The position numbers were made by a program, and so were the translations under genes. A DNA stretch of 62,871 nucleotides, filler included, from Sluysia triapertura (Eukaryota): NCBI GenBank assembly GCA_046118255.1. It is 5 parts of 5 records of this genome, joined end to end, with 100 filler letters (N's around TTAATTAATTAA, not from the genome) between each part and the next. Parts side by side here need not be neighbours in the genome. Positions count along the whole stretch, not along the records: positions 11,554 to 24,037 come from JBJNIA010104765.1; 4 more parts are not named here. The stretch is one strand, 5' to 3'. The notes beneath the pieces are model-generated. The model did not search any database and was not told where the DNA came from. It worked only from the letters and a program-made list of their open reading frames with translations. This document shows positions 2,252-62,870 of this stretch, piece by piece; the stretch's first letter is position 1; every line of letters begins with the position of its first letter.

Positions 2252-4529
2252 ATGAAGTCTAAAGTTTCACCTTATTTAACTAATCTTTCAATGCCTATAT
2301 TTTTATCAATAATATCAGCGATTATATTACTATTACTTACATCATTAATTAGAACTGCATGTGGGTTTTCCAACTTGCATTTAAGATGAGATTGGTTAAT
2401 GCTATGATTAACTGATTTAATACTTTCCTTATCAGCAGAGTCGATTAATAAGTTGCCGTTCTTTGTTTTTTGTAATTGTTTATCTTCGAATTTATAAAAA
2501 TGTTTTTTAAATCTAGAACACTTTCGCTATTTTGATCTTCATCATTTATTAAAACCATTCTGTAGCTTTTATTGAGGTTATTCGTTTTTTGATTAATGTT
2601 CTTTAATTTTTTATTTTCAGTTGATTTTTGACTTTTTCGTTCTTTCCATCTTTAGTATTTTCAATTTTAGATAATTCTTCCGTCAGTGTTTATAATTCCT
2701 TGTTAACAGTAACTTTTCCATTTACAGAAACTTCTGTTTTTAAATTAATCTCTTTTTCCAAAACATAATTCACGAAAATTGTAAATTATCTTCATTGAAT
2801 TATCTAATAATTCACAAATGTCGCTAATTTTTAATAACAGTCTCCTTTTTCATCTTTTTAATATTATCTATACTTAACATTTCATATTTTTTTATAATAC
2901 TATCAATGACATTAGATTCTTCATTTTCAAACGTTAAATTCTTCATTTTTCAAACAAAATGTTTTTATTTTATTAGAAATAACCAAGTAAAATTTTTATA
3001 ACTTGACAGAATTTTTAGGACAAATTTTTATAAAGATTAGATATTGATACCTAGAACAAATCCTGATTAAGAAGAATAATAATTGATCAACTTCTTTCAA
3101 CAATTAGATGTATTTTGCGTAAGTTTATTATTATAAGTTTCCTCACTCTTCCTTTTCAAAGGAAGAGGCTAAATTCGTACGTAAAATATTACTAATTGAA
3201 CGCTATTTAAAAGCTAATTATTTAAAGGCTAGCTTAAAATAATTTTTAAAATCAAAAAATATTAAGAAGTCCTCTTAATAATATATTAAATTTTGTCGTT
3301 ATTATACTGAGTTATTTGTGTAATTAAATAGATACACCTTAGTTGATTTAGTTATTTTACTGTATATAATTCATTTGTTAGTTTTATTTTGATCAGTTCT
3401 GACCGATTTAATGATTATATATTGGTTTAGTTCCATTTATTAACTTCCATGTATATTAGTTCCATCTATATTCCATTTATATATTGCCTTTTTAACAAGA
3501 GAACAATATGTTACAATTTACAATTATTAATTCACGTTTTGTTAGTATGTAAATATAGCACCCATATTACGAATTTATATTGCCTATTGAACGTTGTTTC
3601 ATCGAATAAGAAATAAGACTCTAACAGTTAACAGTTCCATTATTATTCCGCTACATAAAATAATATTTAAGCGTAAACCGTCAAGGGATTCCTCTTATTT
3701 AAGAACTTTTGATTTTGAAATCCTAATAACACGTTCTTTAGCAATAAACGTAAAGCATGCTAATTAGACATGATATTTTGCAAGTATAAGTTAAGGAAAG
3801 AAGAATATTCTTGCATTAATAGTGATAATAATCATATAATGATATCTTTTATAAAAATAATTATTATTATAATTATAACTAAAATAATAATCAATAATTA
3901 TGATCATTAGATATTGGATACTTGCAATTCAATGAAATTTAGATTGGATACAACAGTTGCCAATATAAATTTTACTTATTTAATAATTAATAATAATACT
4001 TAATTGTATACAATAATTAATTTGCAGGGATAGAAATTTTGTAAGTGCTAACAAAATCTTTAAACGAAACCTTATTTTTTGAAAATACTATTAACATAGA
4101 AAAAGCGAACTTATCGGTGCGGTGTTGCAAACCTACAATTCATCCAAAACAAAAATCGCCATTAACACTCAAAATATTAAACATATATACAATCTTATAT
4201 AGACTTAGCACATCAACATAAAACCACTAAAAACTATACCTATTTCCAGAAGTGGTATATCAAATATCAGATATTAAGAAAAGTGGAATGAGATAATGTT
4301 TCCTATAAAAAGAACAAGAATTCTAACCGAAATTGTTGATGCAGCATCACCAAAAGGTGCAAAAGCTCCCAAATATGAATTGCTATTAACGCAAGATCAC
4401 TTTGAACAAGCCGCAAAACATACAGTATATAGAATTTGGGGGAAATTTGCCATAATTGGGGCACATTTGTATTGTTGTATTGGAATTTATATTGTTCTAA
4501 AGGCTATTATTATATGCACTCAAGTATTA

Positions 4530-7475
4530 TGTTGTGCCTTTTAATACTTTTTTATTTTACAACTTCTTAATTAAACCTCAATAATTAAACAAATTCAGAA
4601 TCTCGATATATTCTTTGAATTATCACAAAATTACAACCAAAATATATAAATTATTCATTATAACAACGACAATACAAAGTACTCTTTATGACAAAATACA
4701 AATTATTCTCTATAACAATATTATAAATTATTATATATAACGTAAATTACTCTCTATAAACAAATGACAACCAGGGGTGGCACAACTTACATTTTCGCAC
4801 CAGTATTAATGCAAAATATAAACAGTAAGAAATATATAACTAACCCTTGTCCTAAAAAGAAAATTGATTATTTTAGTCAATTGCTAAAGAAATGACTTTA
4901 CTTTCACCGTTATCCACTGATGAACTAAAGCAGCTTCCCTACAGTTAAAAAGTTTGCTTTATTTGATTTATCCTGACTCTGTCCTTTTACTTCTGTTTTA
5001 ATTGCAGAAATAATATAGAAGTTTTATGGCAATTAATGAAATTAAAAATCAGAAATCGAATAAGACGGAAATTAAAGCTATCGATTTTCTTTTAGTCGGC
5101 AATAAGTCGACTAATTTCGCCGATTGCATGTCGACAGAAATTATTATTCCAATTATCTAAATTTGTGGAAAACAATCCCCTTATCTTCTTAATATCACCT
5201 AATTAAAATTTAAAATCATTGTTACACTGCTTTTATAATAATAACAACGTAATTTGTCAACTTAATGAAATTAATGAAATAAATTTATTTATAACAGGAA
5301 TATTCCGCATTAATACCTTGCAGGTCAAGTTCAGTAACATATTTAAATTAGTTTCTCCATAAGCATTAATTTGATATGAGTTAAAGTTGAATTTGGCATA
5401 AAATTTAACTGAAATTTTTTTGAGTATTTATTTGAATATTGGATTTTTTAAAATGTATTTTAAATTCTATTGAAATTAACAAAATGAATAAGAGTTTTGG
5501 CTTACAACTGAACCAAAGATACATTTAAGAATCTATTAAAAATTTCTAAAAACAAAATTTTAACGTTTAGATATTGTATTCTGCATATATTTTCTACTTG
5601 AGCCTGTGTTTCGTTGCCTGAAGAAAAATCATAATTAAAATTATTATTATTGTAATAAAAGATAATTACTAATTTATCAACTTTTATTGGCAACCCTTTT
5701 CGAGTATATGTAGCTATCCACGAATTAACACTCTTGAGAAGCTCATTGATTTCCAATTCGTTGGCTACATGAGTATACCGACACCTTACTCCGTCCTCAA
5801 GCAAATTCCATGATCTTCAGCGGAGCATGGACAAAATGCGAGAACATTTGTTATGTAATCTTCTTGTCTACTGACAGTTGTTTCATGGTTATGAGTATAG
5901 TTATGTATGACTTTAATATGATCCTCATCTTCATATTGTTTGGAATAGTGATCATCATCTTTGTATTGCTTAACATGGTTATTAACATATTCGTTACCAA
6001 TTTTATAATATTTTAAATAATTATCTTCATTTTTATCTTTAAGATTATTGACATAATTGTCATTATTTTTCTTTATGATTCTTGACATAATAGCTATCAT
6101 CTTTAAAACTATTAACATACTCTTTATCATTTTCATGATGTTTAAAATACCTGTCATCATTTTTATCTTTAAGATTCTTAACATAATTGTTATCTTTATC
6201 TTTATGGTCTTTAGAATCATTGTTACCATGATTGTGGTAGTCCAAAGATTAGCTTTAGTCTCACAGTTGAAAACTAAGCAAATACTTTCGTCGTGGAGCA
6301 TTTTAAAATTGTTAAGTCAACAAACAGTAACTTTTGAAATTGTGAGTTATTAACGATACTTCTTATTTATTAACATAAATTGTGATCGATTTATTTTTGA
6401 AAAATTATTTTGTGCATAACGTTTGTATCCCGATTAGAGCAAAGTAGTCTAATAGCTGATTCGGTTGGATAGCCAATAAGATCTGCTAGTTTATTTTACT
6501 GGTATTGATGAATGCAATCATACTGAGATGACAACCATCATCAACAATGACATGGAATTGTAAATGTAAAGCAAAATGTCATTGCTGATGATGGCGGTAA
6601 CTCACTTGATTGTGAACTAAATGGATAAAATTTAAATTGAATTAAATTATGTTAAAATGATAATAATAATAACGAAGTGTTATTATTATTAATCAAAGAA
6701 TGCATAAATTTCTTGAAAAATCAATTTTTACACGAGTTTTCTTTGCTTTTCATAATCTTTCTCGACATATCTAAATTGTAGAAGAGAAAGGAACTTTCGG
6801 ATTTGTGAATTTATGATCTTAAGTACTTTTTTTGCTGTTTTAGGTCAATTTTGCATAATTAATTCCGATGTTTTGACTGAAATAACGTTTTTGGCTGAAA
6901 TGTTATTAAAGTGTAAATAATTCTGACCTAAATGTAATGTAAGCGTTAAAATGAGTGATGATAGTGTTTGAATATTAAGATTGAATGGTACCAGATGTAG
7001 ATTTATGGTGTTTAATTTACTTTGGAAGTATTGGTTGATTGATTACGAGTGTGAATGTGATTGAATTGTTTGAGATGAAAGAGTGCAACATAAAATATTT
7101 TGAATGAATTTTTAATGTACTTTAATGGTTTAAGACGTTATTGTGATTTGGATGCTGTGAGGTGTCGAATAAATATTCTCAATGGATCGCTTAATGTGAA
7201 TTGATGGTATTCTTTGTTATAAGATTGTAGGTTTGAAATATTTCGAAAAGTGAATGTTTATTTTGGTGTTTGAGAAGAGAAATAAGATATGAAAATGGTT
7301 GTGGTGAATTTTATAAGATTGTTATATGTTGTTGAAAATATGGTTTTAGTTACGTTGCGTTAGTTTTAAATGGATTTAAAGATGTGTACTGTATGTTTGA
7401 AAGTTTATAAGATTTTAATATGTTTGAGTTAAAATTTTTGTAAAATTTATTAAGGTTAGTGAGTTGGCCAGCACA
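4530..7475 (-). mobile_element. TGT...ACA cargo element copy 2 (~2.95 kb)
   Basis: Begins TGTGCTGGCCAAC (7475) and ends CACAACA (4530). Positions 4530-5080 are highly similar to 26942-27420, and the hairpin at 6535-6594 is shared with copy 3. No TSD is recognisable (TATTA vs AATAC). Confidence 0.7.
5502..6301 (-). pseudogene. Frameshifted Asp/Asn/Lys/His-rich repetitive ORF plus a downstream ORF of unknown function (cargo of copy 2)
   Basis: ORFs 5786-6301, 6063-6245 and 5502-5804, with repeats such as NNYVKNLKDKNDDRYFK / DNYVNNLKDKNEDNYLK. Confidence 0.45.
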
Positions 7476-9180: not shown

Positions 9181-11453
9181 AATCTTCTATACTAAATTTA
9201 TTTCTAGATTTTGCTGTTGGATATTTTTAAATAACTTTATGTACTTCATCTTACATTTTTTTACATAATATTCTTCATTTATATTCCGTTGCACTTTTGT
9301 ATTATTACTTTTTGATTTTTCTAAAATAATATTAAGTGTGATTCTACTTTATAATGAATGACGTTTCCTAATTTGGAATCTTCATGTAGCCATTTATTGT
9401 CATTAGTGTAATTTATCTCTCTGATAGGTTTGTTTCCATGGAAATACCAAAATTGTATAAATTCAAGCTACTGAAAATATTTGATATATGATAAAAGCTA
9501 TCACTTTGATTATACCGCATATGATAATTAATCCAAAGAAAAATTGTCTCAAACTATGTAACCTCCACAAATTCATTTTTGGGTTTTTGTGCTGCTTCCT
9601 TAAAATGATCTGGTTCTAGTAGTAATTCAAATTTAATCGTCCTTCCTTTTCTAATATTGCTTTGACTTCTATATCGGTTAAGGCTTTAGAACTTTTTCCT
9701 TTCCGTGCAGCTTGAATGTCAGCATTTTTATAAATTACTGAATATGGTATATTCATTGCTGCGAAAAAATATAACTTTCCTTTTAATTCTATCAGATCTA
9801 TAATTTCGGGGTCTCCATCATATGTGGAGACACTACATATAATTATAATTAAATAGTTTACTGTATGAATGTTTAGCTCATAAGTATTTAGATTTTTATT
9901 AATTTAAATAATGTTTATTTTCCTATTATAATTTTTATGTTTAGCTAGAACAAAAATCAATCGTCATATATTTTGTCACATGTTCCATTTGTCTGCGAAC
10001 CATTAAAAAATAATACTCAATTGCAATTCCACGTTGAATATATATTTTATTATATATTTTATTTGACACCTCTACCTCTTGCCCCGTGTGCAGAACTTGC
10101 CTTTTAAGCTTTTACTTTTATTAATGAATATATTCTTAGTTTTTCAGAAAAACAACCAGGAATTGATTCTGCAGATAAAAATCTTGGCCGCACCAAATTT
10201 TCTCGCAAATCTTAATAAATCTCAGCAGTAACTGAAGCATTTCTATAAATTGCATGATACAATAAAAAATCAGTGTCATAATAAACCAATCAAGCCCTTC
10301 TTAAAGAGGAAATAAGTATTTTCTTAAATAATTATATTGCTCAAATTACTAAACTCGAAATACTATTTAACTTACGATTTATTTATCTAATTTTGTTTAT
10401 CAATTTATTTTTTTCTAATTTTCCAGTCGTCATTTTTCAGGACAAAATAATCTATCGGCAAAAGAATTTACTTTCCTGATTCTGCCAAAACTCAAAACAC
10501 TCTTAAAAGCGAACTCAATTGATACGTTACGTTTGCCTTTTCGGTGGTTAAAGAAGGCGATAATTTTTTTAATCATAACTTGCTGTCATATACAACATCA
10601 GATTGTCATATCCTGTTCTACCGCTCATGACTTGTCGTTGAACTTCTTCCGAGCTTATTTCACTTTTTGATCTGATTAATGTTGCTGGATTGGAATTTGA
10701 TGTATTTATATTTAGTGTTTTATTATTTAATTGTTTATTGTTTAGTACTTCATAAATTATGATACGAAATATTAATTTAAAATAAACTTAAAAGTATTAA
10801 AATATTTATCTTTATAAAGGTCGACTTAATGTCCTTGATAATATAAACTGAATACGAAAGATACAAAAAATGTCCCTTTATTATGCGAATTGTAAAAATA
10901 ATAGCAATAGAACGAAAATGATAGATAAAATAACAAACAATGTCCATTTGATAATATAAAAGACCACGTGCAATTTGGAAAGTCAAGCCTCTGTAATTAG
11001 GAACGTCTCGTGCAACACGGCATATAGATTCCGATATATTCTCCGAGCGATCCACCTGTCTCATAAATAAGCTAGTTACCAACTAATAAATACTAGCTAA
11101 CGCATCTATGCTAAAGCTTGATTACTTAAACGATTCTAAATAAAACATAATCATATAGTATCCTCTAAGTGACGTCATTAACCGTTCAAAAGTTTGTTGC
11201 ATAAATACATAAGTCTTTTCTTTCAAGACTTCATAAGCATAAACTCGTTTAGCCTTTAATTCACGTGAATTCAAATTAAAAATTTTAAGTAGTCTTTGTG
11301 TTTTATTGTTTAACCTTTGTCCGTCAACCGAATGTAATTGTGACGTTTTAGTCAACCTGGGGGGTAATTTTACCCTCCAGAATTTTTACCCACCGTTTAC
11401 GTTAACGTAGTATTACATCATACTGAAGAGAGCTGTGAAAAGCGGTTGTATCA

Positions 11454-11553: not shown

Positions 11554-12682
11554 TGTTAATTATTACTATGTTAAACTTATCTTTATTATTTTGAGCAAAA
11601 ATTTTATTTCTCAATCATTTCAAAGATTTTTTATACACTTTACGATATTGCTCGAAGATCTTAAATGCTTATCAAGGTTTCAAAAATATTCAAAGGTTAA
11701 TAAGATCATAAATAACCTAAAGGTACCTTAATGCCTCTAAAGGTTTTTCAAGTCCATCTCAAACTTCCTTAAGGTCTCAAACCCTTATATAGGTCTTTGG
11801 AACCTTAAGTATTCTTTAGCTGTTAAGATTATTATAAATGTTTCCTCTTTAATGATTCTTATTTCAGCAGTGTTTATAATGTTCAGTCCATCACTTATAC
11901 CAGTTTTCCCTCATTTTATGATTTTACATGTTTTCATTCATCTCCAGATCCACAGCTGCGCAATCCCAACAATCTGATCAACTAAACAATCTAATATTAA
12001 TTTTAATTAAAGTAGACGATCTGTACCTATTCGTGTTTAAATCAACTCCCAAGATTATTATGAATTACTGGATCTCATAAAACTCGAATCATCCTCTGAC
12101 TCATCAATGTCAGTAATAACAAGTGAAGTTTCAGAATCATCATCATCAGGAATTGGTTCTATCGAGACAGTGATGCTCACCTTTTCTGACAAAAATAACA
12201 ATAAGAATAGGAAATCATTTTGGGCACTATTATTAATATTAAGAATTTTGTTACTAACTCTGATTGATACAGTTAAGTCAATAGATATAGAGAAAGATGC
12301 AAAAGATATCAATTACGAATAGATACAACGAGTATTGGGAATTAAAAATTAATTCGAATAAATTTCTAAGCCATAAGTTCACTATTTACTGTGTGTATTT
12401 AGAACCACTATTTATTGAAAAACCACATCACATAGATAAAATACCACAATGTCTGCAAGATACATATAGACCAATGCTAGTAGCATTCACATTAGACACT
12501 GAAAGAAAAATTCGTGCAGAATATAACAAATAAAGTTATAAACAATTGTACCACTAAATTCAAGGCTAGTAAATTATCGTCCAATGATACCATATACAAT
12601 ATTTTTATTTTGGCTCACCACTTGATTATTATCTCGGTAATTCTTATAGTAGTATATGCACTATAGATTATTCTACACGTAG

Positions 12683-13165
12683 TTGATTTCAGTAAAAAAA
12701 CTACGAACAAGCAATATTAATAAAAATTTGGTATCTCTAACGCTAATGATGATAATTACTGCAGTCCAATGCAATACTTATAATGTACAAGTTTATAAAT
12801 CCGAATACCTCGAATTCCAGAACTACGACACCGAAGTTAGAGTTAAAGTATTGCAAAACGATATCCAAGTCAGATTTTCATGTTTAAAACCGGCACGACT
12901 CAATTTTACTTCATGGGCAGTACAACAATATTATATTAATGATAGAATAAATCCGATTGCAATATGCACTGATTTTTTACGTAACGAAGAACGCCACATT
13001 GTTGTAAGAATATATATAGCACCGGAAATGCTAAGAAATGACCCAGCATTGTTAATTTTAATTTTAGCTGGAATATTATTCGTCATGGCACTATCTATTG
13101 TTATACTTATAATCATTATGTTCGTATCAAATAAGTGTAGATACCCATGTTTGCCGTATAACTAA
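12683..13165 (+). CDS. Putative small type I membrane protein in a retroelement accessory region
   Basis: 160-aa ORF with a signal-like LVSLTLMMIITAVQC, a Cys-containing ectodomain, and a long hydrophobic stretch LLILILAGILFVMALSIVILIIIMFV near the C-terminus. Confidence 0.5.
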   Translation: MISVKKLRTSNINKNLVSLTLMMIITAVQCNTYNVQVYKSEYLEFQNYDTEVRVKVLQNDIQVRFSCLKPARLNFTSWAVQQYYINDRINPIAICTDFLRNEERHIVVRIYIAPEMLRNDPALLILILAGILFVMALSIVILIIIMFVSNKCRYPCLPYN

Positions 13166-13282
13166 GACGACAATGATCATTATACAATTCCACATAGAAA
13201 TAACTATGAACCGCCACCAGGATTTCCGCTCAGATACCTCCTGTATACGAGTATGCAACAAACAACCTTTAGTGTACTAGTT

Positions 13283-14274
13283 TACTATCTGTCATGCCGG
13301 CATGCATATGTATGACTTGTATAATTAACATACACGCAACACCAATAATAATGAAACCACTAATCACACTAAAGTTACTACAACGTACAATATACGCGAA
13401 AATATGAAGTGATACCGTTGCGATTACTAATATTATTATACATTGTTGTTCGACTAAATGGTGCAATCGAGAATCCGATGTTAGTAAATATATCAAGTAC
13501 TGGATTGCCTCTTGTGACGGTTTGATGAAAAATCAATTATTCAACGTCACTCTACGTCTAGAATTTATAACCATTTTAATTTCGAAAACCAAATCTATAA
13601 ATAGTTACAGAATTCGAACAAAACCATACACTTTTAGTCATATAACAACAACCATTAGGTTCTTAATGACATTATACAGGGAAGACAATAGCTTCGTTCG
13701 TATAGCAAATCCCTTACTAAAACGCAGCATATTGATGGGTTACAAATCAAATAAAAAGAATCTTACTGGCGATAGTTTTGACGCACTCTTTGATAATGAA
13801 CAACATTATGCACTAATAATACCTAACACCAGCATTCATTTATTCTTTATACCGAAACGCAATCTCACACTAATCGAGGTTTGGATCTTACGTTACAACG
13901 AGATTCTCGATACTCCTAGATTTTGGCCAGAATATAGAGTATGCGACCTAGTAGTACCTATTTTAGACAAATCGAATGTTGAAAATTATCCATCACCAGT
14001 TACAATCACTACTACTTTAAATATATTAAAAAATATAAATAAGGCTAAAACTACTAATTACATCAATATACTAAGTAAGAATATAAGTCTACAATCTTAT
14101 AATTTTTCACGTTTAAGTCATTCTGCTACCTCTATAAATTTATACTACACTATGTTTTGCTATTGCATTGTATTAAGCTTTCTTTTCATTATCTCTTTCA
14201 TACATATTGTATTACAAGTTCATAAGTTCTATTTATTTATAAGGAATAAAAATCATTTTTTCATCAAAGTATAA
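13283..14274 (+). CDS. Putative membrane-anchored protein, partly decayed, with an upstream in-frame CCxxxxCN motif
   Basis: The 250-aa ORF 13522-14274 has a C-terminal TM segment (MFCYCIVLSFLFIISFIHIVL). The same frame extends upstream through HCCSTKWCN and one stop codon. Confidence 0.45.
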
Positions 14275-14523
14275 ATTATATAAGGTATGAAATATGAGTA
14301 ATAGCATTTCCCTGTTTACTAACCATGTGTGACGGTTGTTAACTGTCCATTTTCGGTCGTGGGCAGGATGGTGTTGGAACTCATATTTTATTAAAATCAT
14401 ACGCATATAAGTTTGATTAGCAAATTAGTTAAAATAAATTTTGAATTAAGTATTAACTTTAAAATTATTTATACACTATGTAGTTCCTCTTAAGTATTAT
14501 CTTATTATAATTTTTATTTTTAG

Positions 14524-14794
14524 CAAAACAATACAATCATCCTTGCATTTCACTTTATGCTCCATTTGTCGAAGATCAATACCTAGATACTACTCCATTG
14601 CAATACCTTATAGACATCACTTTCATTTTCGATGTCTATACTTTCTATTTGATTCTGCCCCGACTCCTCTACCTTCTTGCCCCTTGTGCCGAGTCACAAT
14701 CACAGAATGTGATATTTTTTTTACAAAAAATCATTTCGTAGGTCTTACGAGTTTTCTGTTAAATATATTAGACCTAACTCACCTCCTGTTGTAG
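14524..14794 (+). CDS. RING-H2-like zinc finger ORF/exon with one ligand mutated
   Basis: CSICRRSIPRYYSIAIPYRHHFHFRCLYFLFDSAPTPLPSCPLCR gives CxxC...(C>Y)xHxFHxxC...CPLCR. It is preceded by a polypyrimidine/TAG acceptor ending at 14523. Confidence 0.75.
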
Positions 14795-15133
14795 CTTATC
14801 ATGGGCTCCAGGAGAATACTAGTGTTGATAATTGTTCTGAGCTTAATATCCTGTATAACGGGTTCGAGGTGCCAAAGCCTGATTACCCTCCAGGATTAAC
14901 AGAATCACAAAGGCGTAATTATAGACGGCGCCAACTTAGAAAATATTTTAGAAGAAACGAACGATTAAGTAAAAACCCATTTCTTAAGCAATTTTAGTTA
15001 TTTCTTAAATATTATTATATATTATATTATAAAACATGAATTGTATAAAAAATTAATTACTTAGGAAAGACTTCCTTTTACATACGTATTTTTCACTACA
15101 TTAGTTTTTTTACCTTTTATTTCTTTTACGCAG

Positions 15134-16638
15134 TATGAAATTACCACATCAACAACAACAACCACAATAGGATCTTCAACTTCAACACAATCGTCGTCCT
15201 CAGGCCCGCGTTATACAGCAGTAGAACGATTCTGAGCCTCTAATACTACTCCAGCCTTTTTACCCACTTCTTTTGCGACGGACTGTAAGTTAAAATCGGA
15301 ACTTACAGACAACTTAGCTACACATATTTTTTCCTTGACATCAGAAAGACCAACTATTTCTCTGCGTGGTTTAAATAACGCTCCCGAATCTTTTGACATC
15401 TTATATATAGCATCCGCCTTGGGAACGGTTAAAATAAACCTTACCGTCAACAAAACCCCATTACTTTTGCGTTTAGAGGGTTTGTCAACATTCTGTCTTT
15501 CTGAGTTGACAAAGGATTGCGAAGTGACATTAGAAGCGTTGGAATATCCAACGTATGTAGCCATTTTATTCGTTTTACCCCGCCCGCCTCTCTTTGCGCC
15601 CTCTTTTCTGCCTTTCGCTCAAGATACTGACAACATAGGCCGATGGAAAATGGGTTCCTCATTTACACATGTGCCAACCCTTTCTGCATATGATGAGGAT
15701 AGGTTTATATTTGTGGCATTCCAATATTCCACAGATTTTTTAAGTAAACCCCAAATTCTATGCGTAACCTGCACTCCGTATAGTCGGCAATTTCACATCG
15801 AGGCTCGAATCAAACCTCGTTGCCGCATTCAAAATTTCCGGAGGAACAGTCAAATAATTACTGACGTCGACCTTAGACTGGCTAAGGATATCGACGAAGT
15901 TAGACCCCAACTGATAAGGACACTAAGGAATAAAATTTTGGTTTCAACCAACCCAAAATTTTTAATCGAAGCTTTGGATATCCCATTCGGACTCTTACGT
16001 GGGATAGTTAACTTATCCAACCATAACTTGGTTCCCTTCACATCAGACGATCCTTTTATTAGAACCCGTCAAACATGGAGACTTGTTTTTCCTGTTTGTC
16101 CAATGATGACCTATCGGCAGATGGCCACGGAACTGGTACCCAATTTATAAGTCGCTGCAATTAACCCCCTCCCACTCTCTTCAAAACACCTTCATCCTCT
16201 AACCAGCACCTCAATTCCCCGCCTCTTAAAAAACTAAAACTCCCTTCTTTTTATTCTCCTTCTTCATCTTTTCCTCCCTCTTCTTCTTTTTCCTCTCCAA
16301 CTACATCCACAACAAGCACCCCATCTTTATCCATTCCAACTACTACATCCAAGTCACATCATAGATCCAACACCAAATCACCTGTTCGCACAGCATCTTC
16401 AACTACCACGCCCAAACTACACCATGAGTCCAACATCAAACCACCAGCACCCCCTCTTCATGTAACATCTTCTCGGAAGTGTATTTCGTCAACACCATCA
16501 ACAACAATCCCGCTTAGCACCTGCGACATTAGACTAAAACCAATACCTGCTCAAATATTCCGCGATGACAGTTGAACGCACATCCTTTTCCGGTTCGACT
16601 ATTTATTGGACGAGGACGACTCAGTGGACCTGGACTAA
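15134..16638 (+). CDS. Long, relatively GC-rich ORF of unknown function (core 15335-16150) with Ser/Thr/Pro-rich flanks, slightly decayed
   Basis: The 271-aa ORF frame extends upstream to an acceptor TTTTACGCAG at 15133 through one TGA. Downstream it leads, via stops and a frameshift, into an S/T/P-rich tract ending LLDEDDSVDLD*. Confidence 0.55.
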
Positions 16639-16744
16639 CCTTATTTACTCTTACATTAATAATAATATGATCATCCATAATAATAATTGACCTCTATAAT
16701 AATGTGATTATTTATAATAATTTTGCATGTTTTTGTGTTTTTAT

Positions 16745-17033
16745 TCGTGGACGAATTTTCCCGCCAGGGAAAGTAATGTAGTGTATAAAAAATATTAGTT
16801 GTAATGTAAAGTGTATAAAAAATATTAGTTGTAAATTTGCGTTTTATAATCGATTTTAAAAATTTATCATTATTATATAATTAACAAAAAATTAAAAAAT
16901 TAAAAATTATATGATTACAAAAAATTATAAATTTATAAAATCATAAAAAACTAAAATAAAAAATTATAAAATTACTTTAAATTAAACTAAAATAATTGTT
17001 TAAAACCTAAACTCTTTATTTTGTTTTACTACA
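16745..17033 (+). mobile_element. Polypurine tract and 3' LTR (16777-17033) of a Gypsy-like element
   Basis: TCGTGGACGAATTTTCCCGCCAGGGAAAGTAA|TGTAGT resembles the Gypsy 3' end (GGACGAA...PPT...AATGT). The segment ends ACTACA at 17033, a 6-bp inverted terminus. Confidence 0.65.
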
Positions 17034-17299: not shown

Positions 17300-17780
17300 T
17301 TACTTTTATTTTATACAATACCTTACACGGATTGTGTAACCTATTCTTACAGTTTAGCAACCGAGGTTGACTGGAACTTAAAAATCAATATTGTTATTAT
17401 ATTTGTTTTATAAGTTGCAACACTTACTCTTTGTAAGATATACTCGACGTTATTTTGCTGTAATTGTTTTATAAGTTGTAATATTTATTTCTAATAAATA
17501 CTTGACGTTATTTAAGTAATTTTTGCTTTATTAATTTAAAATTCTTTTTTGCTAAAGCACACCTTAATACGGGTTGCGTAATTTGTAAAATATAAAAGCT
17601 TTAGTTGAACAACACCTAATAAAGGGTTGTCCTATTAATTAATTAAAAGTTTACTTAATGGTTTAAGAAAACCTAATAGTACGTCTCCAATAGTGGTGTA
17701 AAGCGTATATATTAGGCGAATCGACTTCTCAGATAATTTGCAGTGTATAGATTTAAGTTTAAGAAAAACACTAGCAGTAT
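17300..17780 (+). repeat. Dispersed repeat with iterated imperfect palindromes; probable LTR end plus PBS region
   Basis: Homologous in inverted orientation to ~62050-62420: shared CCTAATAxTACGTCTCCAAYAGTGGTGTA...ATTAGGCG...CTCAGATAATTTGCAG and repeated ACACCT(T)AATAxxGGGTTG units. Confidence 0.7.
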
Positions 17781-17824
17781 ATAATTAAGACGAAACGCAT
17801 ATAACTAAAGTATATCATCAAATT

Positions 17825-18290
17825 TCAAAACCTGTTGATAGAGAAGCAGCAAAGCGTTTAGCAAAACATTTATTCGAATGTAATGGATTCAGATTAATCA
17901 ATATAGAAAAACATTTAGTTAAAAGAAATGATTTTAGTCAAGTTGTTGGAATAGAATTCTCAAATTTTTTTAGATTTTAAAAATTTACGACTTGAAAAGC
18001 ATTACGGAAATTTCTGAGTAAAGTCACAGTTAATGCCTTTATGCTTCAATTTTCAGAACGATATACGTTCTGTAACCCGTCTGCATATAAATGTAAGGAT
18101 ACTTGTCACACTTTAGTTTGTGCACTGATCACATTAAATGCACATTTACATAATCAGATGTCTCCCAAAATGTCATTCAGTGATTTTATAAATAACTTTA
18201 AGGAATTTAATGTTGACGAAAATTTTAAGTCGGAGAATCTTCAAGAATTACTCGAATCAATTGACCAAGAACCTATTAGGAGTCATGTCG
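17825..18290 (+). pseudogene. PSD: EFA6/PSD-type Sec7 domain fragment (ARF6 GEF), frameshifted and apparently intronless
   Basis: Reads KPVDREAAKRLAKHLFECNGF...KHLVKRNDFSQVVGIEFSNFF / ALRKFL / FSERYTFCNP...CHTLVCALITLNAHLH...KMSFSDFINN, matching the EFA6 Sec7 consensus (AAKRLAKRLY, KNNDFS, FSxRYxxCNP, LLNTDLH, KMTxxxFI). The GETQERER glutamic-finger motif is missing. Confidence 0.85.
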
Positions 18291-20834
18291 ATTATGAATT
18301 CGTAAATATGGTTAACATTGATGAATCAAATGTTGTCAAATTGAGTAGTTTAGTTATCCAGTCTAACAATTCTATCATGAGGACCATAAATATTAATCCT
18401 CAACAATTAAATTCAATTAATTCAATGAATCATGTCACAGTAAAAAAACATTTAAAAGAACCTGACAGTCATAAATTTTGTTCGAGAATTACTGTTCGAG
18501 AACCCACCAGCTTCATCTAAAAGAGCTTACAATACGTCGATATGAACAATGTAAATTAGATTCTTCTAATTCTGAGTCAATTTCAAATACTTCAGTGATG
18601 CTTTTGCAAAAAGTCGAATTTCTACTAGAAGCCTATTAAAAATGCATGAATCCCATGATTTTAGGAAGCCAAATGAAGAGTGTTTAGTTAATGGCCAAAC
18701 GCCAGATGTTGAGTCTAGAGAGTGGACACAAGTTGTTGGGATATTCGATGAAAATTTGCAGAGAACAACTGAAGCTGAATATTTTGTATATAATTCCAAG
18801 GCGACAATTGTGATGTATTGTAGCCGAAGCGATATTTCAAATTTTGGTTCTGTAAGATAAAAATAGTAGAATAAAGATTAAAGATTAAAAGCGTGAGTTC
18901 ACCAACGTACTTGAACTTACCTGTTAGGGCCAGCCGTTGGATTTTTTATGCAATATGTCACTTAAGGTATGACATAAATTTCCTTTTAAATGCGATTGAA
19001 GCATCCTAAATCGTCAAAGAATGTTTGAATGTTTATTATAAATATTTTACAAAAATCCTATTGAAAGGATTTTCAAAAATCTTCAATTAATATTAAGCAA
19101 AAAGGAATTAACTATTATAAAAATTTATAACAAAGTGTAATAATTTTTACAACTGTTTAGGATATAAAATAATATAAGATATAATATTTCACTAAGGAAT
19201 TATTTATAAATTCCTGATTTTTCTTTGTATTTTATAAATATTATTTTGCAAAGGATCTATGAAAAGATCCAAATTAATAATTAATATCACCCTTAACAAA
19301 AATAAACTAAAGTTAACAAAAGAAATTCAAAATTTTAATTTGGTCCACTAGAGTATATCGAGCACAAAATCTTCTTATGTTGATCAATAAAATAGATTTA
19401 AAAATTTACTTAGACGATCGATTTGTTGTGTTATTTGTAAAAACGTTCACTGTTTATATATATTCTCCAGTGGATCGTCCTTGAAATTTTGAAATTAACA
19501 GTATTTAAAACAAAATATTTAAAATTAACAAAATTTCTAAAATATTTAGAATAAATTAACGAAATTTAATATTTAAAACTAATTTAAAAATTTTGAAAAT
19601 AAACTAATAAAATAAATTAATAATAATTAGAGTAATTTTTTAAAAATCCAATAGTAATGAAATAATAATAAAATCAGTGAAATAATAAAATCGATAAAAA
19701 AATTTTTTATAAAGTTAAAATCAATCAATAATTATATTCAATTAATCAATAATTAATATTATATTTGACTATATTTGACCATAACAGTAATTAACTAAGT
19801 TTGTATTAATGAAGTTATGTATTGACAAGTAATTAACAAAGTGTTGTGTATTTGACAGTTCTATATCATATGTAAAGGAGATTGTAGATGGTATTCGACA
19901 AGATTTTCAAGAGGGACAATCAATTAAAGTAATTATCAATTTTTATATATTAATTTTTAGTAATTCTGATAATTTTTATTTTAGGATCCGACAGACTCAT
20001 GAATATGTGATCGAGTATACAAAATGGTTCCAGCTCTCAACAATTTTGTCAATTCAAATTTTAAGAGTTTCAAAAATATGTTCTTTTTTGTCCGCATTGT
20101 TCCTTTCAAAGTTTTAAAATTAGAATTTATTTATTATGTAAAGTATAAAGTATTAAAAACTAGAAAATGCTAGTTGTCTAACATTTGTAAAAAAAATAAA
20201 AATTTGTATAATAACTATTTTGATAACGTAACGTCTAATTACATAGATCTATATCCATCATTATTATAAGAAAATACTAAATTTAACAACTTCATTATTA
20301 TTTAATTAACTCATGTATGAAAAGAATTTTAGTTAAAGACGATCCACATAAAAATAGAACTACTGTATATATCACTCTTACTTACACTTGTTTTATCGCT
20401 CTATCTGCATCAAATTTTTGAAAAATGATTGTACCCAGATTTTAATTCCAATTTTATTGAAGTACTAAAATGAAATATAATTGATTAATAAGCCTTATAA
20501 GCATATTGCGCCACTTTGAATAACCTTGCTTTTTCTTCCTTTTTTTCCAAAATTTCACAAATAAGAATTTCTGAATTAAAAAATCATGTATTTAAGATTT
20601 AATAGGATGTACAAAAAAAGTTCATTAAACCCAATTTATTCAACTTTGTTGATATGATAATTTTTCTTTTAACAAAGTACTATTTAAAACACAAATTTAT
20701 ATATAGAATATTTATTGTCATGATTTTAAAACAAACCTTTACCATTTTTTAAATCAACTTTAATTTGTAATTTAATTTTATTACATATATTTAGTTTTAT
20801 AAGAATTGTTGAAGGAATTCTTATTTTTTGTTTA

Positions 20835-22589: not shown

Positions 22590-23469
22590 GTGAACCTTGA
22601 AGTAACTTAAGACCTCATTAATCTTTAAGAATGTTTGAAACCTTGATAAGCATTTGAGATATTTGAGTAACCTTATAAAGTATTTGAAATCTTTAAAACA
22701 GTTGAGAAATGAAGTTATTGTTACTGATAACAAATATAAATTTGGTACATTAATAATTAATTAAAGAAGTAAAAAAAAGGAATCAGACTGGCGCCTTATA
22801 AAGTAATAAATAATTTAGAACTTTAATAAGATTAAGTCCAAAAGATTAATTAATTAAAATCTTAATTAACTTAATGAAGAAAAAATTAATTTTGTGAAAG
22901 CGGAATGCTTATGTCAAAATTGAAATTGTGTATATATTTGTTTAAAAAGATGTTTCGATGTTTTTACCGAGTTCATGCAAGGAAAACCTTAATATTAAGC
23001 AAAGTTAAATTTTAATTAATAATTAGAATGTTGAAAAGATAATGAACTGAATATAAGATGACTGATACGAAAAAGGAAAATCTAAAAGTGGGTTTGAAAG
23101 GTATGTAGAGTAGTTTCTTTGAGAATGAAGGCCTTAAACATTTTCTGGTGTGACAAAATGAAAATTAATTCTAAAAAGTAAAATTAAATTCATTAATTTG
23201 ATGTAAGTTAACAATACTGGTGATTGTTATTTTAATGTGAGAGGTAATTTAAATAAAAGAAGATTGAATATAGTAAATATAAATAATAGTTGAACATTAA
23301 TCAAATTTGACAGGCCGTATCATGTAATTGTCAAAATTATTCTTGTAGGTTTAATTCTCAAAGAATGTTCTGATTATTCGTATGAGAGAATGTTTGATTG
23401 CAAAAGCCAAGAGTGATTGGATGATGAAAATGTATAAAAAGGAATTGTGAAGATTATTACTATGTTACA
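22590..23469 (-). repeat. LTR-like segment starting TGTAACATAG; its 22590-22765 part is homologous to 11554-11730
   Basis: Shares a 22-nt identity AAATGCTTATCAAGGTTTCAAA with alignable flanks in opposite orientation. The minus strand is C/A-skewed, as in the other LTR-like 5' regions. Confidence 0.5.
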
Positions 23470-37624: not shown

Positions 37625-37880
37625 TCATTTTAATGAATTCGACCTCAGCACTATTTTTAATATTCTCCATACTGCTGTTTTACTGCAGTTTAGCTCTAAA
37701 TATGACATTGTGCGATTTGCACACTTTATTAAACTCCTTTTCTGACTATTAGAAAGTTCCTTAGGACGACCAATTTGTTTATATTTCTTTTTATAACTAC
37801 TATCCAAATAATTGGATATCGCATGTCTTGATCTGTTTAACTTCTTGGTAATACTTGCATTACTTTCTCCTATGTTTGAG
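37625..37880 (-). mobile_element. Tc1/mariner (Tc3-like) transposase HTH remnant
   Basis: Reads ITKKLNRSRHAISNYL...GRPKELS...LNCSKTAVWRIL. Confidence 0.7.
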
Positions 37881-38139
37881 TTAAAAATGCAATATTTGAT
37901 GCTTGGGAAAAGATTGAAAGTACATATTATTTCGATGACAAAAAGGTTTCTAAAGGTATTGAAAAAATAATTTTGCACTATTCGTTGTATAGTCTCTTAA
38001 ATACGTTGAATGTTTAAGGTAAGAAATATTATATTTATAATATACGAAATATTATGTATAATATACAAAATGCGATATATCATATAGCTATGTTCTAAAT
38101 CTCGAGAAATGATAGATATTTGGTGAAACTTTCTACGAT

Positions 38140-38430
38140 GGATCGTAAAGCTACCGTATGACTTCGCAGAGGCAGTTACAGACTTGCGGAATTCACATTA
38201 GTGTTAGAACAGTCAGAAAGAGGACATGTAGACAACCCAGAAGAAAGCTTACGTTGACGCTAGGGACGATCAGTAAAAGGTTGACATGGGCTAAGCAACA
38301 CCAACATTTAATTGAGGATGACTGGAGTCAAGTGTGTTTTAGTGACGAGTCGTCCTTTCAAGTATTGGGTGACAAGACCACCTAATGAGGAGGTTCACCC
38401 TGATTGTGTCATCGAAACTGTGAAACATGA
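38140..38430 (+). mobile_element. Tc1-like transposase remnant
   Basis: Reads GIHISVRTVRKR...KRLTWAKQHQHLIEDDWSQVCFSDESSF...HPDCVIETVKH. Confidence 0.85.
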
Positions 38431-40710: not shown

Positions 40711-41443
40711 ATTTACTTAGAGATAATTGAATACATAATTTAAATTTGCGTGATTTATTTTAATAAAAGTAAAGCTTAACCAATTAATCGAATACCAGCT
40801 TCCAATAGGGGTATATGTGCATTTTAATATTGTCGAAGTATTAATGAATAATATCCAACTTTTAAAACCTGGAATAATTGTAAAACTTGAATTAATCTAC
40901 TCATAATTTTTCATAGTACATTTCTAGATATTTTTATGGCCATAAATTATTGTGTAATTGAACACATTTTTATTAGTTTTATAACCAGCTTTGCTACTTA
41001 CTGTTTTTATGGTGTGTGTTCATTCAATTATGTCACTGTGTGTGCATGTATGTGTTTAAAAACTATTGAGTTATGTCATTAATTTTTGTTCTATTTTTGG
41101 ATGACTGATTTCGAATATTACTGCGTCATTATTGGAGAAATAATCAAAGCAAAATCAATTTGGAAAGATTGTCAAGCATTTTTATTAGCACAATATTCCA
41201 CATTCGTATCCTTTTAAAACATCTAAGTTTGACCATTATTTGTAATCTAATAGATCTCTATGCACGAGAATATAGTTACTTTTAAATTTAGGATCCACTT
41301 ATATTGATACCTTATTTCACTGATCGAATACCTTTTTATATGTTCCCATTCTTTGTTTAAGTAATTAACTGCATAAATTTTATCGTTAGTGTTTTGTTTT
41401 AAAAATTGCTATCCTTTTTAAATATTTCTGTATTGTTAGAAAT

Positions 41444-42901
41444 ATGCGATTAAAATTAAGTTTATTTTGTATTACAGATAAATCCTTAAGCGAAACTTCA
41501 TCACTTTATCCAGATTGTTATTATGACTCGATATATTATGATTGGAATTTTTCGGTTTTTTTCAAATTCTTTATTATACTAATCATTGTTATCGGATTAT
41601 ATGTTAATGTCATAACATTATGCACTTTACGTCAATTTGCCGTCATTTATTTACCAATGTGTCATTATTTTACTTATATATGCTTCATAGAACAAATCGA
41701 TACATTGATTCTATCTTTAGATTGGCTAATTTCTTCATTTACAGAGCATTATCGACCTTTACTAATATTACAATTAATCAGCCAATCATCGTGCCAAATG
41801 GTGCCAATGTTATTTTCGATAATTCGTCATTTAACCTCCAGTCTTTTAATTGGCATGGCAATAGATTTGTGGCGATTTATACAACAACCGGTATTATTTT
41901 TGACGAAATATCGTGGTGAATGGGTGAAAAATGTTTTCATTCTCTGTACAGTTTTAGTTTGCACCATAAACTGTCAATATTTTTGGACTTTTGATTTAAA
42001 CAAAGGTGCAAGTAAAATTTTACACGGTCGCTTATTAAATAATTATATCGAGTGTGATTTTTCCAATACTCTACCATTGAACTTGATTTTTACTAGATAT
42101 TTGTGGCCAATAACCGATCATATGATTGGAGAAATATTACCATTAATAGTATCAATCATATCAGCTAGTTTATGTTGGAAAGCAATTTATACAAAGTTTA
42201 CCAAGAATTATCCAATAAATTTATCAAAAGTTCTCATTAATGCACCACTTGTGCTTGATCTAATAAAGTCATTAATCGGATATTTAATTTTCAACACTTT
42301 TGTTATTATAATTCCAAGATTAATTTATTTTTCTATGAAAATAAATTATAATCCACTAACTGTTACTCAGAAACGACACAATCTTTATCAAATGCTTATT
42401 AATGACGTGGATTCAACAGAAATAGATGATATTCATTCAAATAATGTTACTACACTCACTACTACTGCTTCTATGGTCACTATTACCAATGCTAAAGCAT
42501 CATTAAGTTTTCGATCTGACGAAACATACATAATTTTGATTGGCTATTTCATCAAATATCAAGTTCTATTAATAGTAATAATGAGATTTGTATTTTTATA
42601 TTTGACATTTAAAGAATTTCGTTTATTGACACACAAATATAATCCAATTCGCAAATGTACTCGCTTAATGAATTACTTACAACAAATATTGCATAGAATT
42701 AGACTCCGTAAATATCGTGATCAATATTTTCAGAGGAATATGACTACTAGTAATACCAACGAAAAATTATTGTGTAACAGTGGCATTAATAATAATAATT
42801 ATGGTGATATTATGAGTAATATGGATGCAATAAAACCAGTCAAAATTGCTGAAACTGAACCCATAAGAAGTGCTGGAGTAACAGTTGAAATTTATTGTTA
42901 A
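41444..42901 (+). CDS. Class A (rhodopsin-like) GPCR, divergent peptide-receptor-like, single long exon
   Basis: 485-aa ORF with about seven hydrophobic segments: TM1 GLYVN, TM3 Cys and MAIDLW (DRY position), TM4 INCQYFW, an ECL2 Cys, TM5 ILP and TM6 IP. The true start may be in an upstream exon (acceptor ATTACAG at 41477). Confidence 0.85.
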   Translation: MRLKLSLFCITDKSLSETSSLYPDCYYDSIYYDWNFSVFFKFFIILIIVIGLYVNVITLCTLRQFAVIYLPMCHYFTYICFIEQIDTLILSLDWLISSFTEHYRPLLILQLISQSSCQMVPMLFSIIRHLTSSLLIGMAIDLWRFIQQPVLFLTKYRGEWVKNVFILCTVLVCTINCQYFWTFDLNKGASKILHGRLLNNYIECDFSNTLPLNLIFTRYLWPITDHMIGEILPLIVSIISASLCWKAIYTKFTKNYPINLSKVLINAPLVLDLIKSLIGYLIFNTFVIIIPRLIYFSMKINYNPLTVTQKRHNLYQMLINDVDSTEIDDIHSNNVTTLTTTASMVTITNAKASLSFRSDETYIILIGYFIKYQVLLIVIMRFVFLYLTFKEFRLLTHKYNPIRKCTRLMNYLQQILHRIRLRKYRDQYFQRNMTTSNTNEKLLCNSGINNNNYGDIMSNMDAIKPVKIAETEPIRSAGVTVEIYC

Positions 42902-60813: not shown

Positions 60814-62049
60814 TTATTAAAAAACTAAAAATTAAGCTAAATATGTATATAGTACAATAAAAATAATAATCATAATTAAATTATATTAAATAAATAATTC
60901 ATTTTATATCATGATATTTATTTTAAGTTTGAAATATTTTTTCAAATAAAAATCTTTTAATGTCCTACTTTTTTAATAAATACTTTTAAATTGCAATTTT
61001 ATAGAATAAATATAGTTAATGTAGTATATTTAAATTGAATTTTTGTTAAAAAGTGACGAAGGTTTTAATTATTCAATATTTTTTGTTAAGTTAAATAAAC
61101 TAAATTTTCTTTTAATTTTCAAATTATCATTTTCGTACGAATTTTATTAATACTTTCATTTAAAAAATAATTGAATATGATTTAAGGAATGAAAAAATCG
61201 TAACTATATACATTGTGTTTTGTACACAAAATAAATTTTATTGTTTTTAATTATCAAAATGCATTTTGAATCAATGAATGAAAAGTAAATTCTTTCAGTA
61301 AACAGGAATTAATAAAGTTCAAAAATTAAGTGTTAAAAATTATGAAACAATTAATACATTGTAAACAATTATATTTTGATGCAATCGCATTTTGCTGTGA
61401 TTTTTCTTATTCTTAACCTACGGTAAAATAAATTTTGGCAAGATTCAGTTACAGTGTGTAACTATAAATGATAATTCTTAAAATTTAACTTACTAATGCC
61501 TTAACCTTAAAGTTGTCATATTAAAAACATGTTAATAAGTTCTAACTTGTATTATACTTACTTGAGCAGAGGATCTATATTTATTTATGAACCTTTAATT
61601 AACCGTTTTTTATAAAGGTATGTTAACACTACTGAGTTTATTAATTTAGCCCCTTTTAAATTTAATTCCTACTAATTGAAAAAATCGATTATTTAATGTA
61701 TAATGTAATTCTACTTTTTTGTAATATTTTAAGTAATCTACAATAATAGTTCATAAAAGACAAAAACTTGAAGAAAAGTTTTTTTATAATTTTTATTAAT
61801 AACACAGTAAAAAAATGTATACAGTGTAATAGGAAATGATAGTAATCGCGTACAAGATATAAGAATTAACAACTGTTAGGTGGCTATCATTTAAAAACCA
61901 TCTCAATCTTTAAAATCATTTTAAGAATCTTATTTTTCCAAAAAAGAAATTTCGTTTCCAAAAATAGAGTAGAAGTTTCTATATGGTTCTAGAACATTCC
62001 ATCGATTCATATTGGCTGATAACTAGCATATAAACCAGAATAAGTTTGC

Positions 62050-62420
62050 AAGTGTTTCTATTAAAATCTTATTCTTAACTGCAAATTATCTGAGGAATGG
62101 TCCGCCTAATATACACCACTGTTGGAGACGTATTATTAGGATTTTATCACTTGAATTTAGGAAGCATTTGCATATGTCTTACAATCTAACTTAAGCTAAG
62201 ATATAACTTAATTATTTAATCAAGTAATTTAACTTAATCGATTAATTTAATTTCAAATTTTACAAATTACACAACCCTTTTACTAAGGTGTTGTTTTTAA
62301 AATAAATATTTTATTTTATATATTTCGCAACCCTTTATTAAGGTGTTGTTAGAAAACAGATATTTTACTCGGTAAATTTACTTAATAAGTTTCATAACCC
62401 TTTTGTTGAGGTGTTATTTG
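62050..62420 (-). repeat. Second copy of the palindrome-array/LTR-end repeat seen at 17300-17780
   Basis: Three AACCCTTT...AGGTGTT units at ~62272, ~62329 and ~62396, and the shared CTCCAACA|GTGGTGTA junction. Confidence 0.7.
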
Positions 62421-62687
62421 GAAAGTGAATTTAATATTTCACCGTAGAAAATAAGTAACTCAAACTTAATTCAATGTATTACTTATCGCAAAAAGTGTAC
62501 TGATCAATTATGAATCGCAAGTACAGAGACAAAAATGTAATAATAATAATGAATTTATAATAATTCAATATGAAATTGATTTTTCTTTGATTCTGAATAT
62601 AAATTACGAAAACAATATTAAAGATTTCATGTGTAATTTAGTATTCCCAATTTAAGGTGAATACGAAAACTTAATAACAAAAAATCA

Positions 62688-62870
62688 CTTATTCGACATG
62701 GATCTATAAAATAATAATAATTGAATTTTTTCCGCTATAGCTAATTTAAATTTTTTTCTTGACTTCTTGTTGGGATTGCCCAACTGAGGATCTGGAGATG
62801 AATGAACATATGTAAAATCATAAAATGAAGGAAAAACTGGTACAAGTGATGGATTAAACATTGTAAACAT
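62688..62870 (-). CDS. Open segment, possibly an exon of an unidentified gene
   Basis: 61-codon ORF running to the window edge, with a possible GT donor at its end. No family was recognised. Confidence 0.25.

Follow-up and report, generated by a model that had tools for sequence, protein, structure and literature searches.

What kind of element carries a run of co-oriented open reading frames (ORFs) directly ahead of its terminal repeat? The question is raised by positions 12000-17033 (hereafter the block) of a 62,871-nucleotide (nt) stretch of DNA (the window) from Sluysia triapertura (GenBank assembly GCA_046118255.1). Here about 4.7 kb of plus-strand ORFs are followed by a motif preceding a polypurine tract (the pre-PPT motif), the polypurine tract (PPT) itself and a TG..CA long terminal repeat (LTR). 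The block is probably the 3' half, now decayed, of what is likely a Ty3/Gypsy element with about five sense accessory genes, likely expressed by splicing: three candidate membrane-protein genes (TM1, TM2 and TM3), a RING-H2 finger and a two-domain gene termed F. The window is AT-rich draft sequence of approximately 25% GC, made up of contigs of 5-16 kb separated by 100-nt spacers, and the block lies on the contig at 11554-24037 (JBJNIA010104765.1).

Between 12000 and 16776 there are five plus-strand frames of at least 100 amino acids (aa) and one on the minus strand, against a shuffle mean of 0.8 on the plus strand, and the three plus-strand frames of at least 150 aa were reached in none of 300 block shuffles of this interval. 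It is this ORF excess and strand bias, together with the relatives found for F, which lead us to judge the genes real, supporting the view that the block carries several co-oriented genes, about five. An initial annotation of the same sequence had listed six co-oriented accessory ORFs. The plus-strand excess upholds the general claim but not the inventory, as the copy is pseudogenised and holds about five broken genes rather than six intact ORFs. The features on which the argument draws are as follows (coordinates, strand, description).

11871-11999 (no strand): left flank, an older dispersed repeat outside the element, 85% identical to 62869-62742 (0 of 300 nulls as high).
12011-12065 (plus): possible but unconfirmed pol end (RRS...DYY), the motif not being in one frame.
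12173-12666 (plus): TM1, likely one type I membrane protein in at least three pieces, from hydropathy, sequons and frames.
12683-13165 (plus): TM2, with a signal-like start, an ectodomain of about 90 aa and a predicted transmembrane helix at 13061-13117.
13373-14274 (plus): TM3, with a 249-aa ORF (13525-14274), six sequons and a predicted C-terminal transmembrane helix at 14158-14214.
14495-14523 (plus): acceptor-like tract before the RING, in the top 0.3-2.4% of 2608 window AGs.
14524-14794 (plus): RING-H2 finger without Met and lacking one zinc ligand, from Pfam and PDB profile matches.
14713-14997 (plus): 94-aa frame, Arg-rich from 14911, overlapping the end of the RING (Pfam REV E 0.021, below cut-off).
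15108-15133 (plus): acceptor-like tract before F, best of 206 AGs in the region.
15134-16237 (plus): gene F, broken by stops, with relatives P0001 and P0004 and a predicted cupin-like barrel and DEDDh-like domain.
16165-16575 (plus): C-rich low-complexity stretch (the S/T/P frame), probably non-coding, in a different frame from F.
16744-16776 (plus): Gypsy-type pre-PPT motif and PPT, a single match in the window, with outside matches accompanied by Gypsy pol.
16777-17033 (plus): candidate 3' LTR, TG...CA, 257 bp, 88% AT, with 6-bp inverted ends.
17386-17990 (no strand): right flank, the same older repeat continued, matching 62537-61880 (0 of 300 nulls for each of two segments).
61880-62869 (minus): uninterrupted paralogue of both flanks (empty site), from sequence comparison.
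9916-10660 (plus): eroded second copy on another contig, with acceptor, RING, F N-terminal piece and F C-terminal piece in order.

The type of element is indicated by the 3' end. The PPT (about 16762-16776) and the LTR-like segment with its inverted ends bear out the earlier placement of these features near 16765-17033, the right end of the LTR being less certain and set solely by the 6-bp inverted-end match. The motif just before the LTR is a feature of Gypsy 3' ends. A degenerate pattern drawn up from the block's own sequence has one match in the window (16744-16779), 12 in metagenome contigs and none in viral contigs. In 8 of the 12 metagenome matches the same strand carries Gypsy pol or integrase upstream (typed by Pfam on 15 of 30 listed ORFs and by tblastn with three of these proteins, self matches excluded); two of the other four have less than 100 nt upstream, and two are without pol in 0.9 and 2.2 kb. 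Because these outside matches have Gypsy pol upstream, a Ty3/Gypsy-type 3' end is supported as the identity of the terminus. A solo LTR would not contain the internal pre-PPT motif. A metagenome contig (L010) carries a Gypsy element with approximately 4 kb between integrase and the pre-PPT motif, and has no similarity to the block's ORFs.

Sequence comparison of the borders indicates that the 5-kb block is an insertion within an older repeat, since both flanks match one continuous repeat copy elsewhere: they lie 233 nt apart in the paralogue (62869-61880) and 5.4 kb apart around the block. The junction interval aligns non-significantly to the paralogue (42 of 300 nulls) and is too AT-rich to place a target-site duplication. 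The left edge has no LTR and adjoins the older repeat, and deletion of the 5' half would be the simplest reading of such an edge. A possible integrase-tail remnant (RRS...P.DYY) had been reported here, but the sequence reads SRRSVPIRV*INSQDYY, the motif spans frames, and no pol similarity is found by tblastn or Pfam. The position would suit a pol tail, an identity that is possible but unconfirmed.

The two-domain make-up of F, cupin-like and DEDDh-like, is the most informative feature of the block and was absent from the initial annotation. That annotation had instead described an ORF of about 500 codons flanked by Ser/Thr/Pro-rich (S/T/P) sequence, which does not hold: the F frame is interrupted by stops at 15233, 16148 and 16235, the gene has approximately 350 codons, and the S/T/P tail comes from C-rich DNA read in a different frame, which is as open as this in 71 of 2000 shuffles. 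A HMMER search with F over 1.84 billion representatives returned four matches, of which two are true relatives, distant and intact, both singletons on short contigs: P0001 (365 aa, E 3.4e-16), aligned to F over its full length, and P0004 (176 aa, E 1.6e-6), a partial relative. The other two (P0002 and P0003), both repeat adhesins of bacteria, were discarded as spurious matches. The stop at 16148 is likely premature, because P0001 and P0004 run past it and P0001 has no S/T/P tail. Word-based searches over a limited length range returned nothing for F alone and only P0001 for the F alignment; contigs of viruses, metagenomes and prokaryotes held no match to the F alignment, and phages none to P0004.

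In the AlphaFold model the N-domain of F (about 15281-15583) is a double-stranded beta-helix. Residues 16-116 of the model align with cupins (Z 9.6, root-mean-square deviation 2.2, 89 residues aligned), Foldseek agrees, and the fold search also finds a resemblance to viral cupin and replicase domains. On the strength of this model we regard a cupin-like fold as probable for the N-domain. Folding F as a single sequence was uninformative (predicted local distance difference test, pLDDT, 34; best Z 5.7; no cupin barrel). The C-domain (about 15700-16150) resembles DEDDh exonucleases, the PolC exonuclease 2p1j being the best PDB match of a three-sequence F profile (E 0.0035, and 0.0056 in a second run), and NCBIfam gives each of the three F proteins a single match, in every case to a PolC or DEDD exonuclease model (E 0.057-0.082). 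The Atlas neighbours of F (10 of 30 matches) comprise six DEDDh_C, RNase_T or arenavirus nucleoprotein entries (0.77-0.84) and four RRM clusters including ESRP/fusilli; all similarities are under 0.9 and are treated as a lead only. ESRP itself carries an inactive DnaQ-like domain. DEDD proteins are absent among the fold-search matches listed, which were filled by the N-domain. Taken together, the sequence matches make a DEDDh-like fold of the C-domain quite likely. The structure prediction proposed earlier as a check on the ORFs has thus given, for F, a modelled cupin-like barrel, but a C-domain model of low confidence.

The catalytic D-x-E of Exo I and D of Exo II were placed by alignment, and the H and D of Exo III by eye. 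In Exo I, neither F nor P0001 has the D/E, a position outside the span of P0004, and none of the three proteins has the Exo II Asp, so that the catalytic acidic residues appear to be missing from the C-domain wherever they can be placed. A dead DEDD domain points, by analogy, to RNA binding over cleavage. Maelstrom and EXD1 are cited as inactive DEDD proteins that bind RNA (PMC5408684).

Upstream of F, the RING ORF (14450-14794, plus strand) matches Pfam zf-RING_2 at E 1.3e-5. The earlier description of a RING-H2, E3-ligase-like finger is upheld by this match but must be qualified, as the score of 25.8 bits lies below the curated cut-off of 27.3, the ORF has no start codon, and in this decayed copy seven of the eight C3H2C3 ligands are present, with Tyr at the third position. 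In PDB the best match is the equine herpesvirus 1 (EHV-1) RING (E 0.008), followed by RNF24 (E 0.04); the herpesvirus RING outranks cellular RINGs only marginally. The overlapping 94-aa Arg-rich frame is possibly the tail of the RING protein. A Rev-like reading of this frame was rejected, the REV match being below cut-off and the frame not significantly kept in the second copy.

For the region between the left edge and the RING, hydropathy and N-glycosylation sequons suggest three type I membrane proteins, if the pieces are joined as we infer. The 71-aa and 78-aa ORFs noted previously (12107-12322 and 12297-12533, plus strand) are both present, although the 78-aa ORF is not hydrophobic, and they are likely parts of a single broken membrane protein, TM1. 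Its pieces are a signal-like segment at 12218-12274 (71-aa ORF), a middle part at 12291-12533 (78-aa ORF) and, in the third frame, a putative transmembrane helix at 12601-12657 preceded by three sequons. The proposed 160-aa protein with signal and transmembrane segment is recovered as TM2, whose frame measures 160 aa from stop to stop and 139 aa from the first ATG. Beyond its stop the TM2 frame is Tyr/Pro-rich (13166-13312, plus strand), and this extension might serve as a cytoplasmic tail bearing motifs for sorting or WW binding. Similarly, the transmembrane protein given as 250 aa corresponds to the 249-aa ORF of TM3, for which a signal-like hydrophobic stretch at 13373-13525 lies in a different frame.

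No credible family match was found for TM1-3 in Pfam, PHROGs or NCBIfam, and TM3 has no homologue, in a search that included viral contigs, and no useful Atlas neighbour. No fusogen of approximately 500-700 aa, whether class I (F-type) or class III (gB-type), is seen in the block: none of its TM ORFs reaches 300 aa, and the longest has no Pfam env match, although the same Pfam library did pick up fusogen relics elsewhere in the window. An env may nevertheless have stood before pol in this element, an arrangement found in flatworm and nematode elements (PMC13524379). Paralogy among the TM ectodomain pieces and the F N-domain was undetected (10 pairs; best 9 of 200 shuffles).

How such genes might be expressed is suggested by the tracts in front of the RING and F, both of which had been called strong splice acceptors. 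The AG at 15133 earns that description (top 0.8% of the window AGs in addition to its rank in the region), while that at 14523 earns it by T or pyrimidine count but not under a C-weighted matrix, where it falls outside the best 14 of the 206 region AGs. The first in-frame Met of F is at 15650, deep inside the region homologous to its relatives, and this late Met and the Met-less RING fit expression through the acceptors.

The eroded second copy bears on the same point. Its RING has 66% DNA identity to that of the block, its F N-terminal piece (10466-10582) matches P0001 (1 of 200 shuffles) and its F C-terminal piece (10538-10659) is matched as well by 0 of 200 shuffles (for DNA, 0 of 400). Conservation covers the RING acceptor tract (0 of 400 nulls) but not the preceding 160 nt (192 of 400); a similarity that begins at the tract is as expected if the tract is functional. 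Strong AGs at 10426 and 10440 stand at the place of the F acceptor, with a non-significant DNA match (34 of 400). Neither the Arg-rich frame, the TM genes nor the 3' end is significantly conserved, and no PPT or LTR was recognised behind this copy. The expectation that the ORFs are multi-copy therefore holds for the RING-F cassette but not for TM1-3, found in the block only: the cassette is repeated, and its second copy does not show TM1-3 travelling along.

Several points weigh against the reading of the block as half of a multi-gene Gypsy element. The block is joined to no 5' LTR, gag or pol (Pfam, tblastn and repeat comparison in the window), no second copy of the LTR occurs in the window, and 112 other window ORFs of at least 62 aa give no gag, reverse transcriptase (RT), RNase H or integrase match in Pfam, so that the anticipated link to gag-pol or a paired LTR was not found. 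Gypsy pol occurs in the window only as a separate remnant of the RT N-terminus on the minus strand (9172-8876; tblastn E 3e-6), the strand opposite that of the second RING copy. The pre-PPT pattern derives from the block itself, hence the outside matches are its sole test, and those with a typed pol ORF carry chromodomain or Tf2-SH3 tails, which are uninformative on the lineage of the block. TM1-3 are linked to RING-F by one copy only, and no similarity extends upstream of the second copy (42 of 60 nulls). ORF phases after the candidate acceptors differ, and a single coding leader cannot serve all of them as the sequence stands. As to F, the cupin model was built from a three-row alignment at a pLDDT of about 60-70, AlphaFold confidence is low for the C-domain, and all DEDDh sequence matches use one stretch of approximately 55 residues; this same segment was aligned by hhalign between the F family and six DnaQ-type domains, with a non-significant score (15.9 against a shuffled maximum of 16.6).

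The rival that survives best holds that the block is a patchwork, in which a Gypsy 3' end carries RING and F, or F only, and the TM genes come from a separate insertion such as an endogenised segment of a non-retroviral virus. The second copy, repeating only RING and F, speaks in its favour, as do the lower GC of TM1-3 (0.29-0.31, against 0.41 for F), the large-DNA-virus proteins found as Atlas neighbours of TM3 (0.82, with low recognition) and the richness of the window in nested relics. However, the genes are closely packed on one strand with no internal LTR, terminal inverted repeat or repeat boundary found within the block, the entire block sits between two halves of a single repeat, and no viral relative was found for TM3 or F. 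We give this explanation a small but real chance. A one-off capture by an LTR element of host exons together with their acceptors, without any role for the element, would account for acceptor tracts that resemble a host acceptor in the window and for a RING-H2 domain, a type common in host genes; transduction by LTR elements also has precedent (PMC7264820). It is at odds with long ORFs that lack introns, with a second copy that preserves the order of its parts after diverging to about 66%, and with the lack of any close host gene: the RING has no relative at E 1e-3 among proteins of 62-200 aa, F has two singletons, and the block's ORFs match no ordinary host gene in Pfam or homologue searches. 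We consider it quite unlikely. Finally, a chimera of fragments of different repeats joined in this short-contig draft would suit a window strung from such contigs, the LTR-less left edge and the uneven identity of the flanks to the paralogue (85% left, 64% right), but is very improbable given that both flanks are colinear with one paralogue and the RING-F order is found again on another contig.

If the block is indeed the 3' half of such a Gypsy element, an LTR-driven leader could be spliced onto the acceptors and supply start codons. The RING would need such a leader because its ORF has no Met, and a leader of this kind is proposed on the model of Gypsy ORF3s, for which expression as spliced units is described (PMC5408684). 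At the cell surface, three small type I membrane proteins, instead of a classical env, might then mediate cell-to-cell passage or receptor interference, although this role in transmission, argued by analogy, is doubtful. The RING-H2 protein could act as an E3 ligase removing host silencing or restriction factors, and F, without catalytic residues, could bind and shield element RNA in the manner of Maelstrom and EXD1, its cupin barrel serving for dimerisation or sensing. Action of RING and F in counter-defence is a tentative proposal, to which we would give somewhat less than an even chance. The fullest version, that an undescribed invertebrate Gypsy lineage has independently arrived at the gene load of complex retroviruses, with a 3' cassette that is multiply spliced, three small surface glycoproteins in place of env, an E3 ligase and an RNA-shielding F set against PIWI-interacting RNA (piRNA) or RNA interference (RNAi), is rather unlikely as a whole.

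Its interest lies in what it would add. Most descriptions of LTR retrotransposons in invertebrates give them one extra gene at most, and known cases of counter-silencing proteins encoded by transposons are few. An E3 ligase and a catalytically dead DEDD-like protein are concrete candidates for this function, and F would, if the proposal is true, be a Maelstrom-like fold used against the host. The naturally intact relative P0001 could be assayed for RNA binding, and P0001 and P0004 are seeds for finding whole elements in animal assemblies. The value of the locus is limited by the decay of this copy and the absent pol link.

The remainder of the window holds further relics and host-like fragments. 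Pfam matches include Sec7, Sec23/24, an IP3/ryanodine-receptor exon, fn3 and Tc3 transposases, a set that points to an animal as host. An exact-sequence look-up of 10 window proteins in a protein collection found none present, and PHROGs profiles gave no credible match to nine window proteins. Decayed chuvirus-like fusion glycoprotein genes occur at 4278-4541 and 30399-31763, both on the plus strand (Pfam Monjiviricetes_fusion, E 1.8e-7 and 7.5e-9), and are probably env remnants of other LTR elements; they were rejected as the env of the block's element, being on other contigs with no detected shared sequence. A repeat pair of 82% identity at 4723-5088 and 27056-27423 may be LTR. An intron-less degenerate Sec7-domain frame lies at 17789-18520 (plus strand, Pfam E 2.6e-18); the DNA upstream of it is the dispersed repeat shared with 62869-61880, the paralogue stops short of the Sec7 domain, and the frame is possibly a retrocopy or repeat-borne gene. 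A further inverted pair of dispersed repeats, 73% identical, is found at 11556-11724 and 22594-22760. Tandem arrays occupy 33078-33542, where a 93-nt unit is repeated within an open frame of 273 aa, and 36347-36578 (29-nt unit). Other features are a BED finger (34247-34435) and pieces of Tc3 transposase (37628-38382). A single-exon 503-aa frame at 41390-42901 (plus strand) has several hydrophobic segments and no Pfam or PDB match; it is like a G-protein-coupled receptor and flatworm-like in appearance.

Complex retroviruses such as human immunodeficiency virus and the foamy viruses carry several accessory genes downstream of pol, each preceded by a splice acceptor, and their products include ubiquitin-pathway and Arg-rich proteins. 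The likeness to the block is one of analogy only, as the terminus of the block is Gypsy-type, no env fusogen was found and the resemblance to Rev is below cut-off. The closest known systems are instead the ORF3s of bdelloid Vesta/Juno and planarian Burro. Vesta and Juno are Gypsy-like elements of bdelloid rotifers with a sense ORF3 between pol and the 3' LTR, one per family and described as a spliced unit, which encodes either a small transmembrane protein or a DEDD 3'-5' exonuclease of the DEDDy (RNase D-like) type with intact catalytic residues (Rodriguez et al. 2017, PMC5408684). The block likewise has sense exonuclease-like and transmembrane genes ahead of its 3' LTR, but differs in its tandem row of about five genes, in an exonuclease likeness of the DnaQ/PolC (DEDDh) type without the catalytic acids, in a cupin-like fusion and in a RING. 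Burro/GYPSM1 of planarians are giant Gypsy elements with ubiquitin-related domains, including RING, for which interference with the host has been proposed (PMC6431247). Their domains are mostly within a huge gag-env-pol polyprotein or upstream of it, whereas those of the block are separate genes behind pol, with no fusogen detected.

Other precedents concern single ingredients. CERV of Cer1 is a spliced regulatory gene in an invertebrate Gypsy element (PMC10309623), and sORF2 of the MDG1 group is a small transmembrane protein that replaces env and is proposed to aid passage between cells (PMC11952523). Both are likened to the block's genes by description, with no sequence link seen; sORF2 is myristoylated with an ectodomain of approximately 30 aa, whereas TM1-3 have signal-like starts and predicted ectodomains of about 90-270 aa. 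In plants, the aORF-3S genes (PMC7264820) and an AlkB ORF of orchid Gypsy elements (PMC9289625) are extra sense ORFs before the PPT, and one product of these extra ORFs is a protein with a double-stranded beta-helix, for which a role against host control has been suggested (PMC7264820, PMC9289625). The barrel of F is closer to cupins (Z 9.6) than to ALKBH1 (Z 7.2) and has no HxD...H metal motif by eye. No element with the gene set of the block was found described in the literature covered, although Repbase/Dfam entries, subscription papers and supplements may hold the family. Each ingredient is precedented, whereas the number of genes, their tandem layout and a protein joining a cupin-like domain to a dead DEDDh-like domain are, as far as we have seen, particular to this block.

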